32,000 bases of DNA from Candidatus Photodesmus katoptron Akat1. Its GTDB lineage: Bacteria > Pseudomonadota > Gammaproteobacteria > Enterobacterales > Vibrionaceae. The first letter of the stretch is position 1. Each line of letters starts with the position of its first letter. This document shows positions 2,380 to 31,077 of this stretch, in pieces. The DNA lies in assembly GCF_000478685.1 (NCBI RefSeq), contig NZ_AMSD01000002.1:394337-426336 (forward strand). The letters run 5' to 3'. The position numbers and the translations under genes are program-made. A model generated the notes under the pieces. That model saw nothing but the letters and a program-made list of their open reading frames with translations. It was not told where the DNA came from and searched no databases.

Positions 2380-2657
2380 AAAAACCCTTTTAATTGTCAG
2401 ATGGATAAATGAAATTATTTATAATAAATATCTACTAATAGTTAACTATTAAAATCAGCGGATATAAAAAATTATTTAGATAAAAAACTAATGTAAAATG
2501 TACAAAAATTCATTTTTTCATTTTACAGAAATAAAATAGTTGATTAAAATATCATTAAGCATAAAAAAATCATATATTCAATATATGATAAAAAAATAAA
2601 AATGCGTTACTACTATTCATATCAGGGAAAAAACTTTATTGGACATTCTAAGTAACT

Positions 2658-6959: not shown

Positions 6960-7837
6960 TTAAACTGCAGCTGCACCTGATACTATTTCAGATAGCTCTT
7001 GAGTAATTTCAGCTTGACGAGCCTTATTATATAAAAGTTCTAAATCATCAATTAAACAGTCGGCGTTATCAGTTGAACTTTTCATAGCTAGCATTCTAGC
7101 TGCTTGCTCACATGCTAAATTCTCAACTAAACCTTGATATACCTGAAATTCTAGATACCGTATTAACAATACATCTAATAAGGATTTAGAGCTAGGTTCA
7201 TATATATAATCCCATGAATAACTTTTTTTATATCATTATTATTATCTTTATCCTCAGATAAAGGTAATAATTGTTTAATCTTAGGTTTTTGAATCATCGT
7301 ATTTATAAAACGATTAAATACTAAAAATAACTGATCTAACTCACCTGAATCATACTTTTTCAGCATAACACCGACCGAACCGATTATACTTTCAAGACTT
7401 GGTCTATTTCCAAGACCTGATAACTGGGCAATAACCTTAGCCCCAATATGTTTTTTAAAAAAGGAACTAGCCTTTAAACCAATTATAGACAACTGAATAT
7501 TGGCACCTTTTCTAGATTTTTTTTGTATATCTATAAGAGTCTGTTTAAATAAATTAATATTTAATCCTCCACACAAACCACGATCTGTAGAAATAACAAT
7601 ATAACCAACAGATCTAGCTGTTCGCTTTTCTAAGTATGGATGGTACAAGTCTAATCTATCAGATTGAGTAATATGATTAATAACTTTAGATATTTCTTCA
7701 GAATAAGGACGAGAAGCTTCCATTAATTTCTGAGAACGACGCATCTTGGAAGCTGCTACCATCTCCATCGCTTTTGTTATTTTTTTAGTGCTTCTAACAC
7801 TACTAATCTTAGTATGTATTTCTTTCGGATTAGTCAT
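6960..7837 (-). pseudogene. atpG: ATP synthase F1 gamma subunit, interrupted by one -1 frameshift in an A7 run
   Basis: Two adjacent ORFs, 7175-7837 (220 aa, N-terminal part: [26 protein letters not shown]) and 6960-7169 (C-terminal part: [20 protein letters not shown]). The C-terminal frame actually reads back to ...[32 protein letters not shown], matching E. coli K.[28 protein letters not shown]. The only stretch open in both frames (7178-7232) contains the run at 7223-7229 (T7 on the plus strand). One extra A restores a single gamma ORF. Confidence 0.88.
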
Positions 7838-7885: not shown

Positions 7886-9430
7886 TTACCAAATTTGAGT
7901 GTCTTGAAAAGAACTTAATATCTTTTGAAACTGTATTTCAATTTCTTCGTTATATTCATCAGTTGTATTTATCTTATCTACAAATTTTGAATATTCTAAA
8001 TGAGCATAAGATAATATAGACGATTCAAAAGATAAAATATCTTTTGCTTCAATTTTTTTAAAAAAAACACTTTCTGCTACAAAAAGAAGCAATGCTTGGT
8101 CAAAAACAGACATAGGAGAATACTGTTTTTGCTTCATTAATTCTGTAATTTTTAAACCATGCTCTAACTTCTCCTTAGTTATTGAATCTAGATCAGAAGA
8201 AAACTGTGCAAACGCTGCTAATTCACGATACTGAGCAAGTGCTGTACGAATACCAGATGAGAACTTTTTAATTATTTTATTTTGTGCTGCCCCACCTACA
8301 CGAGAAACAGATATCCCAGGATCTAATGCAGGACGAATACCCGAATTAAATAATTCAGTTTTAAGAAAAATTTGACCATCAGTAATTGAAATGACATTAG
8401 TTGGAACAAATGCAGATACATCACCTGCTTGTGTTTCAATTATAGGAAGAGCGGTTAAAGAACCCGTTTTCCCTTTCACCTGACCATTAGTGTGCCTTTC
8501 TACATATTCTGAACTAACACGAGCTGAGCGTTCTAGTAATCTTGAGTGAAGATAAAAAATATCACCAGGAAAGGCTTCACGACCAGGTGGACGTTTCAGT
8601 AATAAAGAGACTTGACGATAAGCAACAGCTTGCTTAGATAAATCATCATATACAATTAAAGCATCTTCACCACGATCACGAAAATACTCTCCCATTGTAC
8701 AACCAGAATATGGCGCTAGATACTGTAATGCAGCAGATTCAGAAGCTGTTGCTACAACAATAATAGTATTATCCAACGCTCCGTATTTTTCAATTTGATG
8801 CACTACACTGGCTACAGTAGAACTTTTTTGACCTATAGCAACATAGATAGAATAAACACCAGATTTTTTTTGATTAATAATTGTATCAATTGCCATCGAT
8901 GTTTTACCAGTCTGACGATCGCCAATTATTAATTCACGCTGTCCTAAACCAATTGGAATCATAGAGTCAACAGACTTATAGCCAGTCTGAAGAGGTTGAT
9001 CTACCGATTTACGTTCAATAACACCTGGTGCAATTACTTCGACAGGCAAAAAAGTTTTAGATTTAATTGGACCTTTCCCATCAATTGGTTGACCTAAAGT
9101 GTTTACAATTCTACCAAGCATTTCTTGACCAACTGGAACTTCAAAAATACGTCCAGTTCCTTTCACTTTCATTCCTTCCTTAAGATCAAAGTGAGGCCCC
9201 ATAACTACAGCTCCAACTGAATCACGATTAAGATTTAATGCTAAAGCATAACGTTGACCAGAAAGCAACTCAATCATTTCACCTTGCATTACATTTTCTA
9301 AACCATATATGGTAATAATACCATCACTTACTGACGCAATAGTACCTTGGTTGCAATTTTCTATAACAATATTAAAATCTTTAATGCGTTTTTTGATTAA
9401 TTCGCTAATTTCTGTGGAACTAAGTTGCAT
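7886..9430 (-). CDS. atpA: ATP synthase F1 alpha subunit
   Basis: 514 aa with Walker A GDRQTGKT. Full-length collinearity with E. coli AtpA. Confidence 0.97.
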
Positions 9431-9443
9431 ATTCCAATCCTTA

Positions 9444-9984
9444 TCAATAATTCGTCTTCAATAAATTTCTTAGACAATTTAAATAACCCATTGCAGAGCC
9501 ATCAATTAGTGTATCTCCAACTCGAATTGTAATGCCACAAATCAAATTTTGATTTATAGCACAATGTAGATTAACCTTATAACCAAAGCGCTTTTCAAGT
9601 TTATCTATAATAATCTTGCATTGTTTTTTAGAAAGTTTAACCGCAGATAATACATAAGCATCTTTACGTTTTTTATATTCATTTTTCAGATAAAGAAAAT
9701 TTTTAAAATGCCAGGAAGGTTCATGAGGCGTGAGTTTTTAATAATCATTTTTATAAAATTCTGAGAAAAATTGTTAAACTGATTTTTATAACAAGATAAA
9801 AAAAATCCTCCAGTCTATGAGGAGATAATAAGCGAGCATCTAATATTTTTTAATTTGCTCTTGTTCTAAAAGTTTAACAAAAAAATAAGCACTTGATTCC
9901 AATGTTCTACCTGATCATTTTCGAGAGCGAATTCAAAAACTGCATTAGAATAAATTCTTTCTATTTTTTATTTAAGTCAGACAT
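9444..9984 (-). pseudogene. atpH: ATP synthase F1 delta (OSCP) subunit carrying five single-base frameshifts
   Basis: No ORF of 60 aa or more lies in the 566-bp atpA-atpF gap. The minus strand from ATG 9984-9982 to TGA 9446-9444 nevertheless translates as delta in six successive frame segments. They begin MSDLNKK and end ...[43 protein letters not shown], compared with E. coli [41 protein letters not shown]. Position is exactly where atpH belongs. Confidence 0.85.
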
Positions 9985-9996
9985 TATTTTGTATAC

Positions 9997-10467
9997 TTAA
10001 AGCTTAGATGAAATTCTAGATATAATATCATCATGATCGTTCTTATCAATTGTACGCTGAAGAATTTTCTCAGCAGCTAATATTGATAAATCAGACAATT
10101 GCTCACGTAGTTTTAAGTTAAGACGACGTTGTTCAGCTTCTATTTCAATTTTAGCTTGAAGAAGAATTTTATTATGTTCAATTAAAGCTTCTTGACGAGC
10201 TTTATGAATAATCTGAATTTTACGTTTATTTGCTTGTGTAATGATTTTTTTTGCTAAGATCGATGCTTTTTTAATTTTTTTTGAAGCATCTAATTTTGCT
10301 AATTCTACATTCTTAGCAGCATCTTTAGCCTCTGATAAAGAGGAAGCAATATATTTTTGACGTTCTTCAATTGCCCGAATAATAGGCGGCCATACATACT
10401 TAACGCAAAACCAAACAAATAGAGAAAACGATATTGCTTGACCTAATAAGGTTGCATTTAGATTCAC
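9997..10467 (-). CDS. atpF: ATP synthase Fo subunit b
   Basis: 156 aa, the same length as E. coli. Has an N-terminal membrane helix (FVWFCVKYVWPPI) followed by a long charged helix. Operon position fits. Confidence 0.92.
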   Translation of the reverse strand: MNLNATLLGQAISFSLFVWFCVKYVWPPIIRAIEERQKYIASSLSEAKDAAKNVELAKLDASKKIKKASILAKKIITQANKRKIQIIHKARQEALIEHNKILLQAKIEIEAEQRRLNLKLREQLSDLSILAAEKILQRTIDKNDHDDIISRISSKL

Positions 10468-12056: not shown

Positions 12057-12235
12057 ACGCAGTACCTGTGTAAGATATATTCAATTTTAAATAGCTATAT
12101 CAAAGTCTAAAATTATACGATCAGATAAATTGATTGCAATCAAAATACTGTAAAAAAACAACTTTTCTTATAATCCTATATTTTTCATAAAAAATGTACT
12201 AACCTTTTAGTTTATCTATTTCGAATGATATTTAT

Positions 12236-12310
12236 TCTTTTTCTCGAGCTGAAGCACTATTAACTAATAGAATAGGCGTCTAATCCTTTTCCTAAACTAG
12301 GTTTAGACAT
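12236..12310 (-). pseudogene. parB: Remnant of chromosome partitioning protein ParB (N-terminal approx. 25 codons only)
   Basis: ATG at 12310-12308, 1 nt after the parA-relic stop. It reads MSKPSLGKGLDAYSIS**CFSSRKR, matching the conserved ParB N-terminus (M.K..LG.GLDALL...S..RE) but with two in-frame stops. Only about 250 nt separate it from atpI, so the roughly 290-codon body is deleted. Confidence 0.6.
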
Positions 12311-12311
12311 A

Positions 12312-13007
12312 TCAACTAGATTCCTTATAATAAATTGATTCATTTAGTTCTTCACGACGCAGGATTTCAGCAGCTAACACCAAGTATGCCTTAAGCACCT
12401 AGGATGAATGCTTATCATAATACATAGCTGATTTTCTATGACTTATTTGCTTCAGCTGAATGAATATTACAAGGAATGACTGTTCTATAAACTTCATTAC
12501 CAAAATGTTTTTTTAACTGCTCCGAGACTTCATTTGAGATTCTATTTCTTGGATCATACATAGTACGTAAGAAACCTTCAATTTTTAAATTCACAAGCAT
12601 TAATAGTAAGAAGATTTAAAGAGGGAGGACAAGCAATAAAAATAAAATCACAAACATCTCGAACTGAAGAAAGAGTATTTTTAAGACGATCTTCTCGAAA
12701 AAAAACTTCCATTAACTTTATTTCAGCAGCTGTAATATCACTATTAGCAGCAATGAGATCATAATAACCTGATATCTGTCTGTATCCTACTTTCTTGAAA
12801 GAAAGATTTTTAATTATAAGTTCATAATCTCTTGCATTTATTTTATATTTATCTATTCCACTTGCCATAGTAGCATTACCTTGAGGATCAAGAAGAACCA
12901 ATAATACTTTTTGCTTAATTACTATCATTGAGGCAGCTAATGTTTACACAAGTTGTAGTTTTTATAACACCACCTTTCTGATTTGTAATAGCTATAATTC
13001 TTCCCAC
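12312..13007 (-). pseudogene. parA: Decayed chromosome partitioning ATPase ParA/Soj
   Basis: The 116-aa ORF at 12578-12928 (LLDPQGNATM.SGIDKY, YDLIAANSDITAAEIKLMEVF, CPPSLNLLTINA) is the middle of ParA. The upstream frame from GTG 13007 gives GRIIAITNQKGGVIKTTTCVN. Downstream frames give KIEGFLRTMYDPRNRISNEVSEQLKKHFGNEVYRTVIP and SHRKSAMYYDKHSS*VLKAYLVLAAEILRREE. Lesions are listed in the findings. Confidence 0.85.
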
Positions 13008-13031
13008 AGATATATCTCGTAATTATCGTAA

Positions 13032-13679: not shown

Positions 13680-15572
13680 TTAGTTATTTTTAATTAAGTA
13701 CTGTTTTTTTAAATGTATAAGCAAAATTGAAATTGTCACAGGTGTTACTCCAGGAATTCTTGATGCAGCACCTAACGTATTAGGTCTTATAGTACTAAGT
13801 TTTTCTATTACTTCATTTGATAGACCTTTGATTTTTTTATAATCCAGTTTTTCATCCAAGATTGTATTTTCATAACGGATGGACTTTTCAATTGTTTTTT
13901 GTTGGCGATCAATATAACCTTTATATTTAATCTGAATTTCAATTTCTTGAGTAACTTCAGAATCTTTTAATCCAGGATAAAAAGGTTCTAATTTCATTAA
14001 CTTAGAATAGGTCATTCCAGGACGTCTTAATAAATCTTCACCGCTCATTGTATTGGATAAAGGATTTGTGAGCAGCTTATTGATAGCACGAATATTATTA
14101 GCATTTGGTTGTATTATTATTCCTTTAAGGCGTTGTTTCTCATTCTCAATATCATTTATTTTTTTATTAAATTTAACCCAACGCATTTCATTAATAAGAC
14201 CTAATTTATAGGATTTTTCAGTAAGACGAATGTCAGCATTATCTTCACGTAATAGTAAACGATATTCAGCACGTGATGTAAACATCCGATAAGGCTCTGT
14301 TGTACCTAAAGTAGATAGATCATCAATTAGAACACCTAAATAAGCTTCATCACGACGAGGTATCCATCCCTCTTTATCTTGATTATATAAGCTTGCATTA
14401 ATTCCAGCCATTAAACCTTGAGCTGCAGCTTCTTCATAACCAGTTGTACCATTTATTTGGCCAGCAAAAAACAAACCTTTAATTAATTTTGTCTCATAAG
14501 TTCCTTTAAGAGCACGTGGATCAAAAAAATCATATTCAATTGCATAACCTGGACGAATAATATGAGCGTTGTTGAATCCTTCGATGGATTGAATTAATTC
14601 TACTTGTACATCAAATGGCAAACTAGTAGAAATTCCATTTGGATATAATTCATTAGTAGTTAAACCTTCAGGTTCAATAAAAATTTGGTGGGACTCTTTG
14701 TTGTTAAAACGTATGATCTTATCTTCAATCGATGGGCAGTATCGTGGTCCAATTCCTGTTATATTTCCATTAAACACTGGGCTTTTAGAGAGATTTTTTC
14801 TGACTATATCATGAGTATGCACATTAGTGTGAGCAATAAAACAAGGTATTTGTTTTGGATGTTGTTTTGGATTTCCTATAAAAGAAAATACAGGTACAGG
14901 ATAGTCTCCATGCTGAATCTCTAAACTTGAAAAATCCACGCTTCTAGAATCAATTCTAGGTGGTGTTCCTGTTTTTAACCTATTTACCTTAAAAAGATAT
15001 TCTCTAAGATGCATAGCTAATTTACTTGAAGGGGATTCGCCTGATCTTCCTCCAGGTATAGTTTTTTCTCCTATATGTATTTTTCCGTTAAGGAAAGTAC
15101 CAACAGTTAAGATCACTGATTTAGCATAAAATTTATAGCCTATTTGGGTAACTACTCCAATGATAGTATCATTTTTTATAATAAAATCATCTACGGATTC
15201 TTGGAATAGAGTTAAATTTTCTGTATTCTCTAAAGTTTTTCGTATGTAATTTTTATAAAGCAACCGATCAGATTGAGCTCTTGTAGCACGAACTGCTGGA
15301 CCTTTAGAAAGATTTAAGATCTTAAATTGAATACCTGAATGATCAATTGCTTGAGCCATTAATCCACCCATAGCATCAATTTCTTTTACTAAATGACCTT
15401 TTCCAATCCCACCAATAGCTGGATTACAAGACATTTGACCTATAGTATCAATATTATGGGTTATAAGTAGTGTATGTTGTTGAGTGCGGGCTGTTGCTAA
15501 AGCTGCTTCTGTTCCTGCATGTCCAGCTCCTATTACAATTACATCAAATTGGTTTTTGTTTTTGTAAAGCAA
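13680..15572 (-). CDS. mnmG: tRNA uridine 5-carboxymethylaminomethyl modification enzyme MnmG (GidA)
   Basis: 630 aa with the FAD motif [14 protein letters not shown]. Long identical blocks to E. coli MnmG ([74 protein letters not shown]). Confidence 0.97.
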
Positions 15573-15639
15573 TCTGTTAATTCCTAATGTTTCTTTAAAA
15601 GAACTTGTATGATGTTATTTAAAGGTTTACGAACTTTTA

Positions 15640-15880
15640 ATATAAGATCTAAAAGATCTTATATATTTTTATTATTAAGGATTCTTAAGTACGTGGATAA
15701 CTGCTATATAATCAATAAGATCATGTTCTTCTCACCCATTATATAGTGTGATCAAAATTTTATTATGATGAGTGTTATATGTGTATAACTACTACTATTA
15801 TACATAACGTGGTTTTTTTCTCTACACATATAAATAAACACAGGTTAATAACTATATATCTATGTAGTTATATACAGACA
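15640..15880. promoter_or_regulatory. oriC: Candidate chromosomal replication origin (oriC core): GATC-rich AT-rich unwinding-type repeats plus DnaA boxes
   Basis: Located in the spacer next to mnmG, as in E. coli and Vibrio. Four GATC sites fall within about 110 bp (15646, 15655, 15719, 15750), the first two inside tataAGATCTaaaAGATCTtata followed by a T/A-rich run. DnaA-box-like 9-mers are cgtggataa at 15692-15700 (TTATCCACg), tgtgtataa at 15780-15788 (TTATACACA, the R2 type) and ttatataca at 15868-15876 (one mismatch). Confidence 0.5.
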
Positions 15881-16283
15881 TTAAAAAGCACCAAAATCAT
15901 ATCGTTATTGAATTCACGTTTATATACTTGTAAATTCCTTTACTAAGACAAATAACTTTGAATTTAAATAAACATAAGTCAATTATATTTTTATGAATAT
16001 GGCTTATTTTAAGAAAAAATCATACTTTTTTATACTCAAGTTTTCGCTCAATAACGGTTTCTATATTCATATTTCAAATATTAATAATCTAAAAGCAATA
16101 AAGTTTAATCTTTCCTAACTATAGAGGTTTTAAATAAAAATATTTCTAGAATAATGCTAGTATATAAAAGTTTACACCAATGATAAGTATGTATTATGTA
16201 AACTTATCTATTATTTTTAGATACCATCATTTATAATTGAATAAGATTCAACTTTTTTTAACTATTTAACTTTAATTATCACA

Positions 16284-21983: not shown

Positions 21984-22118
21984 CTATTTAGAAAGATGTA
22001 CACGACCTTTTTTTCGACGTGCATTAATAATTTTACGACCATTTTTAGTTGCCATACGTGAACGAAATCCATGGGTACGACTTCGTTTCAGAACTGTAGG
22101 CTGAAAAGTGCGTTTCAT
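21984..22118 (-). CDS. rpmH: 50S ribosomal protein L34
   Basis: Not in the ORF track because it is too short. The minus strand reads [44 protein letters not shown] (44 aa), compared with E. coli [39 protein letters not shown].... Confidence 0.95.
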
Positions 22119-22476
22119 GATCGATACCTTTAATTACTGTTATCTAAAAGAGTTTCTGTTTTTTCTCTTGTATTTAAGCAATTGTAAAAATAAATTAAGA
22201 GAAACTAATTGTAAAAGTTCACGTTATTACGACTATATACCAATAATCGTTCCATCATAACTTAATTTTAAAAAAATGCAATAGATTATAATACTAAATA
22301 TAGATACTCAGAAATATGATAACAATCATATTTTCTATAATTAAAAAATTGCTATTGTAATATTATTCAGTTTAGAACTATTATCTAATATCAATTAAAT
22401 ATTTTTAATGCGTGATTATTCAATAGAATTGAAAATTACTATTTCAATTTTTTCCTTTCATTTTTGTGGGTTATTC

Positions 22477-22518
22477 TGTGAATAAATTCAGAAAAAAATA
22501 TGGTAGTATTGTGAATAA
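22477..22518 (+). promoter_or_regulatory. Pair of DnaA boxes upstream of dnaA (autoregulation or origin-associated)
   Basis: TGTGAATAA occurs at 22477-22485 and again at 22510-22518. Both are reverse complements of TTATTCACA, which fits the TTWTNCACA consensus. A third, weaker, inverted copy (ctattcact) follows at about 22527-22535. Confidence 0.55.
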
Positions 22519-22612
22519 CCATAATTCTATTCACTGGAACCATAATTAAATTCTAGTGAGTTAGATTATCGATAGATAATCTTCCAGAAATTTTCCTATT
22601 ATAAATAAGTGT

Positions 22613-24037: not shown

Positions 24038-24108
24038 ACTGGTTTAAGTAGTCGATGGTAAGTATATATCAGTTAAGAAAAAAGTTTTTTTATTAAGAAG
24101 CATGCATA

Positions 24109-25227: not shown

Positions 25228-28793
<3,566 letters not shown>

Positions 28794-28986: not shown

Positions 28987-31077
28987 TTACTCTTTCAAGA
29001 TCGAAAAGTCTGCTATTCCTTGGAATAAATTAGATATATTTTTTAATATTGTTAAGCGATTCTGTCTTATTCTTTTGTCATTGCTTATGATAGTTACTTT
29101 ATCAAAAAAAGTATTAATTATTGGAGTCAATTGAGCTAGTTTTTCTAATTTTTTGCTGTATTTATTTAATATAAAATTTGAATTTAATTCTTGTTTTAAT
29201 ATCTTTATTTTATCAGATAGAATTTTTTCCTCATCTTTGCAAAGAAGGATTGGATTAATTTCTTCTTTTAATGTGAAGTTACACTTCACCAATATGTTAG
29301 TTACACGTTTAGTTACAGCGATAAATGATTTGCCTTTTTCTAATTCAATGAAATTTGATATTGCTTTTATTCGTTCATCAACATCTATTAATTTAGTGGA
29401 TTTTGTTGCTAATACAGATTGGATTATATGTAGATCAAAACCGGAATCTTTATACCATGCATGAAGACGAGCTAAAATAAATTCAATTACATGGATTTCT
29501 ACACTATTATTCGTTAATTTATTTTTAAATAATTCTTTAGATTTCGTAATGAGATCAGCTAAATCAAAATCATAACTATTTTCTATAATAATACGAAGCA
29601 CTCCTAATGATAAACGTCGCAGTGCAAAAGGATCTCCACCTTTTTTAGGGATTTGATTAATTCCAAAAATTCCTACTATAGTATCCAGTTTATCTGCAAG
29701 AGCAAGTGATGAAGCAATGCCTCGGCTTGGTAATAAATCACCGGAAAATCTTGGTCTGTATTGTTCATATAATGCTATAGCTACTTCTTTTTCTTCACCA
29801 TCGTAACTTGCATAATGCATGCCAATTATACCTTGCATTTCACTAAATTCGAATACCATAGATGTCATTAAGTCACACTTACTTAGAAGCGCTGCACGCT
29901 TGGTATTTTTAATATTAGCAGTATTTTTTTTTGCAATATAAGTAGAAAGTTCTACTATTCGTTCTGTTTTTTCTTTAAGTGTTCCAAGTTGTTTTTGGAA
30001 GATAGCCTTATCTAATTCTGGAAGATATTCAATGAGTTTACGTTTGCGATCTTTTATAAAGAAAAACTTAGCATCGGAAAGACGAGAATGAATTACTTTC
30101 TCGTTACCGTTTATTATTTGATTAGGATCTTTAGATTCAATATTAGCAACAAATATAAAGTTTGGTAATAGTTGTTTTTTCCTCTTGTTTTCATAGACAG
30201 GCAAGCATTTTTGGTGAGTTTTCATAGTATAGACCAAAGCATCTAAGGGGATTTTTAAGAATTGTGTTTTGAACTTTCCTATTAAAATTACAGGCCATTC
30301 AACAAGAGAAGTAATTTCTTCTAGTAAAGTATCATCTAAATCCAGAACACCTCCAATTTTTTCTGCAGCCTTGTTAGCATACAATAGAATTTTTTCTTTG
30401 CGTTCTTGAAAATCAGCAATTACTTTACCTTGTTCTTTTAAGATTTTCGGATATTGATTTGCAGATTGTATAGACAGCTTATGTTTACCAATAAAACGAT
30501 GGCCATGAATAGTACGGCTAGATGAAACACCTAAAATTTCTCCATGAATAAGTTCATCATTAAGTAGAATTGTTAGGGTTTTTATAGGTCGTATAAAACG
30601 AATATTAGAGTTTCCCCAACGCATGGTCTTATCTTTTGATAAATTAATGATACTTCTTTTAATCAATGGTATAATTAATTCTTGAATATTTTTACCTTCT
30701 ATTTCTTTTTTTAACACTAACCACTTACCTTTTTTTGTAACTAGGTGGTTAGCTTCTTCTAATTGAATATTATTACTTTTAGCCCAACTCAAAGCAGATT
30801 GAGTTGCTTTACCATTAGTATCAAATGCAACAGAAATAGAAGGGCCTCGTTTGTTTATTACTCTTGTAGGTTGAATTTCTAATAAATTTGTTACTTTCAA
30901 TGCAAGACGACGCGGTGTAGCATACCATTTAATTCTTTTATATGTTATTCTTTCCTTCTTCAATTCTTTTTCAAATATTTTTGAAAAAGATTCCCCTAAA
31001 GAACGCAGTTTTAATGATGGTAATTCCTCAGTTCCTAATTCAATTAAAAAGGTTTTTGCTATATTTTTTTCTTTCAT
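28987..31077 (-). CDS. glyS: Glycine--tRNA ligase beta subunit
   Basis: 696 aa beginning [11 protein letters not shown]. Size and collinearity match E. coli GlyS. Translationally coupled to glyQ by an ATGA overlap at 31074-31077. Confidence 0.95.

Follow-up and report, generated by a model that had tools for sequence, protein, structure and literature searches.

Homopolymer undercalling as the probable cause of five frameshifts in atpH of the 'Candidatus Photodesmus katoptron' Akat1 assembly

Introduction

'Candidatus Photodesmus katoptron', an uncultured member of the Vibrionaceae, inhabits the light organs of the flashlight fish Anomalops katoptron as a symbiont. In the genome assembly Akat1 of this organism, the gene encoding the delta subunit of the F-type ATP synthase (atpH) is interrupted by five frameshifts. 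Does the symbiont carry a decaying gene, a damaged gene that is corrected during its expression, or an intact gene that was misread in the assembly?

The DNA analyzed here, referred to below as the window, is a stretch of 32,000 nt of the Akat1 assembly with a GC content of ~30%. The products of the neighbouring genes gidA, atpF and atpA were matched by exact-sequence look-up to EPE375xx proteins of Akat1, encoded on a contig of 431,242 bp. The cumulative GC skew of the window has its minimum at ~16-17 kb and rises after ~22 kb. One gap (~15573-16283) is flanked by gidA and a gene for a mioC-like FMN reductase, and a second gap (22000-22612) by rpmH-rnpA and dnaA. The window thus covers the origin region of chromosome 1. 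A scan for DnaA boxes returned 19 matches compared with 11.3 expected, which is barely above chance.

The atpH gene as deposited in Akat1

Three-frame translation of the minus strand between positions 9999 and 9444 yielded collinear segments of a delta subunit in the frame order 0>2>1>0>2>1. All five frame shifts have the same sign, and each of them corresponds to one absent base within an A/T run. The stitched protein was recognized by the Pfam OSCP profile (PF00213), with residues 8-173 aligned to profile positions 1-171/172 (122.5 bits, cut-off 22.3; E=2.6e-35). The gene occupies the place expected from the gammaproteobacterial operon order atpIBEFHAGDC, between atpF (b subunit) and atpA (alpha subunit). 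A first-pass annotation, made from the letters of the window alone, had described atpH as readable only through five same-direction one-base shifts in homopolymers, and the translation and the profile match bear this out. The runs that it had named (T6, A7, T6, A8 and T5 on the strand as deposited, for lesions 1 to 5) lie exactly where it had placed them (Table 1), and the ATG at 9984 does follow the atpF stop codon by 12 nt.

According to the same annotation, the last ~84 codons form one clean frame. The frame is indeed uninterrupted, but its first ATG, GTG or TTG lies only 33 codons ahead of the stop codon, and it is therefore without an expressible ORF. The longest ORF within any atpH fragment is at most 35 aa. 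The deposited products of atpC, atpD, atpG (220 aa, truncated), atpA, atpF and atpE are numbered consecutively from EPE37543 to EPE37548; since EPE37546 (atpA) and EPE37547 (atpF) follow each other directly, no AtpH protein was deposited.

Comparison of atpH with related genomes

Proteins identical to AtpF and AtpA of the window are also encoded by contig JGVJ01000014.1 of GCA_000731785.2 (JGVJ01), a second P. katoptron assembly that is 99.85% identical to the window. JGVJ01 was obtained from eight pooled Vanuatu hosts using Illumina HiSeq 100-bp reads at 181x coverage, and represents a consensus of six Velvet assemblies (PMC4987116). Exact 46-mer searches of metagenome contigs and of genome contigs, the latter also scanned with intact AtpH, revealed no third P. 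katoptron sample.

In JGVJ01, atpH is an uninterrupted gene of 546 nt, encoding 181 aa plus a stop codon, and its product scores 147.4 bits on the TIGR01145 equivalog profile (cut-off 57.5). A base-by-base alignment showed that the copy in the window is identical to this gene except in five runs, each of which is one base longer in JGVJ01 (Table 1). Neither substitutions nor larger indels were found in this alignment, in agreement with the first-pass annotation, which had noted no substitution-type stop codons and no larger deletions, and the length calculated in the first-pass annotation for a repaired gene (541+5 = 546 nt) is exactly that of the intact JGVJ01 copy. The position of the fourth lesion had been given as a T5 run at 9783-9787 or, alternatively, an A8 run (lesion 4 in Table 1); the alignment discards the first choice and retains the alternative. 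The peptide at this lesion is ...RLEDFFLSCYKNQFNNF..., not ...EDFFYLVIK/QFNNF, and the true peptide local to it is EDFFLSCYKNQF. All lesions do lie in the N-terminal half of the gene, and this pattern arises because all four runs of at least 7 nt in intact atpH are located there.

Table 1. Genes, shortened homopolymer runs and reference features of the window (run lengths are those of the coding strand, compared with JGVJ01).
Feature	Position	Strand	Description
glmU, atpC-D-G-A-(H)-F-E-B-I, parA relic, gidB, gidA		minus	gene block of the window
dnaA-dnaN-recF-gyrB		plus	follows the minus-strand block
atpA	7886..9430	minus	intact, identical in both assemblies; A8, T8 and A7 runs unchanged
atpH (F1 delta/OSCP)	9444..9984	minus	541 nt; no CDS annotated in the record
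atpF	9997..10467	minus	intact, identical in both assemblies
atpH lesion 1	9964-9969	minus	A6 vs A7 in JGVJ01; codons 6-8, ..NKKI..; L001 position 3499
atpH lesion 2	9879-9885	minus	T7 vs T8 in JGVJ01; ..LIFFV..
atpH lesion 3	9846-9851	minus	A6 vs A7 in JGVJ01; ..IKKIL..
atpH lesion 4	9798-9805	minus	T8 vs T9 in JGVJ01; ..EDFFLSCYKN..
atpH lesion 5	9700-9704	minus	A5 vs A6 in JGVJ01; ..GILKNFLY..
atpG lesion	7223..7229	minus	A7 vs A8 in JGVJ01
Second cluster, three runs one base shorter	2482-2487, 2590-2596, 2628-2633	.	within 147 bp

The orthologous locus of a second species, P. blepharus, was reached via AtpA homologues; a search with AtpH itself recovered only the query and one JGI protein with 34% identity. 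Contig JGVK01000009.1 of P. blepharus (L005) carries the genes gidB-parA-parB-atpIBEFHAGDC-glmU, every one of which is intact, including an atpH of 179 aa. Thus, the comparison of orthologous loci that the first-pass annotation had suggested finds atpH intact in both JGVJ01 and P. blepharus, and the reading frame that is interrupted in the window is continuous in both. AtpH of P. katoptron and P. blepharus share 40% amino-acid identity, with dN of 0.50 and dS of 0.96 (dN/dS ~0.5, dS being near saturation). By these values, AtpH is fast-evolving between the two Photodesmus species; profile searches recognized both versions as full-length delta subunits.

Two observations were made on AtpA in the course of this search. 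The AtpA proteins of the two 'Photodesmus' species share 76% identity, and are no closer to each other than to AtpA of Photobacterium damselae. The top AtpA match (P0007, 724 aa, ENA opera_contig) was discarded as a partly duplicated atpA on an unrelated metagenome contig. In this contig (ENA ERZ13689413 opera_contig_144481; L004 10001-12435), the N-terminal and nucleotide-binding domains are duplicated within the 724-aa 'AtpA', and a C-terminal fragment of 87 aa comes after it; the duplication is probably a scaffolding or misassembly product, unrelated to Photodesmus.

These comparisons bear on the possibility that the frameshifts are real and that the gene is kept functional by transcriptional or translational slippage, as in Blochmannia and Buchnera. 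The location of the lesions in A/T runs and the undamaged state of the remainder of atpH agree with such a rescue. In the examples documented for these two genera, each gene carries a single indel, located in a tract of at least 9 nt (e.g. 11 A); about 30% of the transcripts are corrected at best, and populations or species often share the frameshift (PMC3017870). The atpH lesions depart from this pattern in that there are five of them in one gene, none lies in a tract of ~9 nt or longer, and they are shared neither with the other strain nor with P. blepharus, both of which are in frame. Five independent corrections on one mRNA would yield at most 0.3^5 = 0.24%, and far less for runs of 5-8 nt, and no start codon is available for a C-terminal product longer than 33 aa. 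We therefore give hardly any weight to a slippage-dependent rescue.

Single-base indels across the window

Contigs JGVJ01000014.1 and JGVJ01000003.1 were aligned to ~28.5 kb of the window. The differences comprised 29 SNPs, an indel of 17 bp that affects the 3' end of gyrB, and single-base indels, of which there were 12. Five of the latter are located in atpH, one in atpG, one at the end of gidA and five in intergenic DNA (three of these at 2482-2633), and in all 12 cases the run in the window is one base shorter. The SNPs behave like real strain divergence, with 16 synonymous and 6 non-synonymous changes and a 13:13 split between the lineages when polarized by AT mutation bias. The 12:0 sign of the indels differs from this symmetric split (Fisher p=0.0026). 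If the slippage were real, two lineages of equal divergence should show indels of both signs; the one-sided sign therefore points to a systematic undercall.

Several other differences between the strains were recorded. The gyrB indel (window 28729-28745) gives a product of 824 aa in the window and 805 aa in the Vanuatu assembly, and P. katoptron strains thus appear to differ in a GyrB C-terminal extension. In codons 32-34 of glyS (window 30976-30982), a stretch of 7 bp carries three substitutions (AAAAATATTGG vs AAATATTTTTG), and just upstream of dnaN (window 24100-24101) two neighbouring bases are changed. Either complex mutations or mistakes in the local assembly may underlie these two clustered differences. 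In gidA, the one-base difference falls in a run within the last codons (13687-13691), so that ...IKK* (629 aa) of the sister assembly reads ...IKNN* (630 aa) in the window.

The longer a run, the more likely it is to be changed: changes were found in 0/168 runs of 5 nt, 2/85 of 6 nt, 4/48 of 7 nt, 4/25 of 8 nt and 1/5 of 9 nt. Confinement to runs, a single sign and this dependence on length are what is expected of homopolymer undercalls. The changed runs are not evenly spread: among runs of at least 6 nt, 5/7 are changed in atpH compared to 11/164 over the entire 28.5 kb (hypergeometric P ~1e-5), and a length-stratified permutation gave 5e-6 for the clustering in atpH. A model of uniform homopolymer error was rejected on these grounds (P ~1e-5). 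In the corresponding segment of the sister contig (L002 9457-9731), all five runs of at least 6 nt are changed and none of the five 5-nt runs.

Such a tight cluster with an apparently deterministic threshold, affecting five of five longer runs and none of the 5-nt ones, is also what one real event would leave behind if error-prone synthesis or repair over ~270 bp had removed one base from each run of at least 6 nt. Nothing in the data supports this event. The sign asymmetry extends across the whole window, and a property of the assembly is a better explanation for both the second cluster and the scattered same-sign differences, so that a single episode of this kind is barely conceivable. The second cluster (Table 1) is intergenic, between tusA and a gene for a SIS-domain protein, in the part of the window with the lowest GC content (16-19%). 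A T7 run inside this cluster (L002 16866-16872) is unchanged.

More serious consideration is required for a pseudogene of very recent origin, confined to the Akat1 clone from one Philippine host. In this case the symbiont would have no coupled F1Fo ATP synthase, atpH and atpG having been inactivated by replication slippage at A/T runs, with neutral slippage deletions following. All of the lesions are mutations of a kind to be expected in reduced, AT-rich genomes (PMC3017870), and two subunits of one complex (delta and gamma) are affected. Furthermore, as would be the case under selection, indel differences are scarce in intact genes and enriched in non-coding DNA (4/22 runs changed in non-coding DNA vs 2/135 in intact genes, p=0.004). 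The depositors, moreover, kept atpG in its truncated form and left atpH unannotated.

The hit rate in atpH does not fit this scenario. Five changes in 7 runs would have had to accumulate at a strain divergence of only ~0.1%, compared to 4/22 runs in non-coding DNA (p=0.016) and 0/4 in the parA relic (p=0.045); at a per-run rate of 0.18, the binomial probability that at least 5 of 7 are changed is 0.003. In a genome with a dead complex, the remaining atp genes would be evolving neutrally as well, yet only 1/14 of their runs of at least 7 nt is changed, vs 4/4 in atpH (p=0.0016). The density of lesions in atpH is thus not compatible with the neutral rate of the same genome pair, and a simple neutral-decay model is disfavoured by comparison with non-coding DNA, the parA relic and the other atp genes alike. 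The absence of any substitution in atpH between the strains, the 12:0 sign of the indels set against symmetric SNPs, and the intact gene in both the other strain and P. blepharus point in the same direction. A young pseudogene is accordingly considered unlikely, although it is the main rival to an assembly error.

Condition of the neighbouring genes

A split in atpG, which the first-pass annotation did not mention, was observed in the window. The gene (6960-7837) is divided there, by the shortened run listed in Table 1, into pieces of 220 aa (7175-7837) and 69 aa (6960-7169), compared to 292 aa in JGVJ01, and only the 220-aa piece is annotated in the Akat1 record, as 'ATP synthase gamma chain' (EPE37545). 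On the other side of atpH, ~270-310 nt upstream of lesion 1, atpF has two A8 runs that do not differ between the assemblies, and they therefore set a bound on the affected patch.

Between gidB and atpI, a relic of parA/parB (12057-13031) is present in both P. katoptron assemblies, with a single SNP between them, at 12265. In P. blepharus both genes are intact at this place (L005 663-2351), with products of 259 aa for parA and 296 aa for parB, and the relic is much shorter than this region. On this comparison we take the relic to be a genuine species-level pseudogene or deletion.

Discussion

We consider it likely, from the comparison of the two assemblies, that the five atpH frameshifts are homopolymer undercalls in a low-quality patch of the older Akat1 assembly. 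The patch would be between 266 and ~580 bp long, and its technical cause might have been, for example, few or error-prone reads, or a gap-closure sequence. The real atpH of the organism would then be an intact gene of 546 nt encoding 181 aa, flanked by atpF and atpA within a complete atpIBEFHAGDC operon, and the frameshift of atpG, like the five one-base differences in intergenic DNA, would be an error of the same kind. What the alignments show directly is that the lesions are present in the deposited sequence, that they have one sign, cluster and depend on run length, and that an independent high-coverage assembly lacks them. A local low-quality patch accounts for the clustering, for the second, intergenic cluster, for the strict length threshold and for the single sign. 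Among the three explanations that the first-pass annotation had left side by side, a mis-called assembly is therefore the best supported; a young pseudogene is disfavoured by the hit rate and the one-sided sign, and a rescue by slippage does not stand.

The weak point of the undercall reading is that the errors are non-uniform, with a change in 1 of ~44 runs of at least 7 nt in other genes vs 4/4 in atpH, and that an ad hoc, locally bad patch is therefore needed. The enrichment of indels in non-coding DNA would favour real mutation filtered by purifying selection; AT-rich, low-coverage DNA would give the same contrast. It should be noted that real homopolymer indel rates are high in AT-rich reduced genomes, and that the 12 differences could therefore include genuine polymorphisms. 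The authors of JGVJ01 considered gene differences between the two P. katoptron assemblies to be probably due to methods and technology (PMC4987116).

As no fragment of atpH is long enough for ORF calling, the gene may have escaped curation. The ORF filter used for JGVJ01 removes ORFs shorter than 100 aa with weak hits (PMC4987116). If the filter of the earlier annotation resembled it, a gene broken five times could have gone unnoticed because its fragments do not exceed 35 aa.

The distinction matters for the use of both assemblies. If the lesions are artefacts, the Akat1 record, which lacks an atpH CDS and contains a truncated atpG, would cause the symbiont to be wrongly scored as missing ATP synthase subunits, and JGVJ01 is the assembly to use in comparisons of gene content and pathways. 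If the lesions are real, they imply that a vertebrate symbiont which is extracellular and environmentally transmitted has lost the coupling of oxidative phosphorylation, and that an unusual process has generated clustered indels. The evidence makes the latter reading unlikely. In particular, it is very improbable that the deletions are real and private to Akat1 in the sense of a population with broken delta and gamma subunits in one fish, living with no coupled F1Fo ATP synthase and struck by a 'shower' of clustered -1 indels at every run of at least 6 nt over ~270 bp, far above the neutral homopolymer rate of the same genome.

Compared with known systems, the atpH lesions resemble the homopolymer-length errors of draft and early next-generation assemblies. 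Like these, they affect only A/T runs, are always -1, depend on run length, are absent from an independent Illumina assembly, and cause apparent frameshifts in otherwise conserved genes; unlike these, they are clustered (5 in 266 bp) and not spread over the long runs. With the slippage-corrected genes of Blochmannia and Buchnera they have in common the AT-rich reduced genome of a symbiont and the position of frameshifts in homopolymers of otherwise intact genes, but the Akat1 gene has five indels in runs of 5-8 nt that are not shared with a sister strain or species. The parA/parB relic belongs to the same genome and adjoins the atp operon; it is common to both assemblies, whereas the atpH lesions occur in one assembly only. 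Finally, the gene itself is a member of the F-type ATP synthase delta family (AtpH/OSCP; PF00213, TIGR01145) by its position between atpF and atpA, its full-length profile match and its length of 181 aa, and differs from other members in its fast-evolving sequence and, in the window copy, in being interrupted five times.
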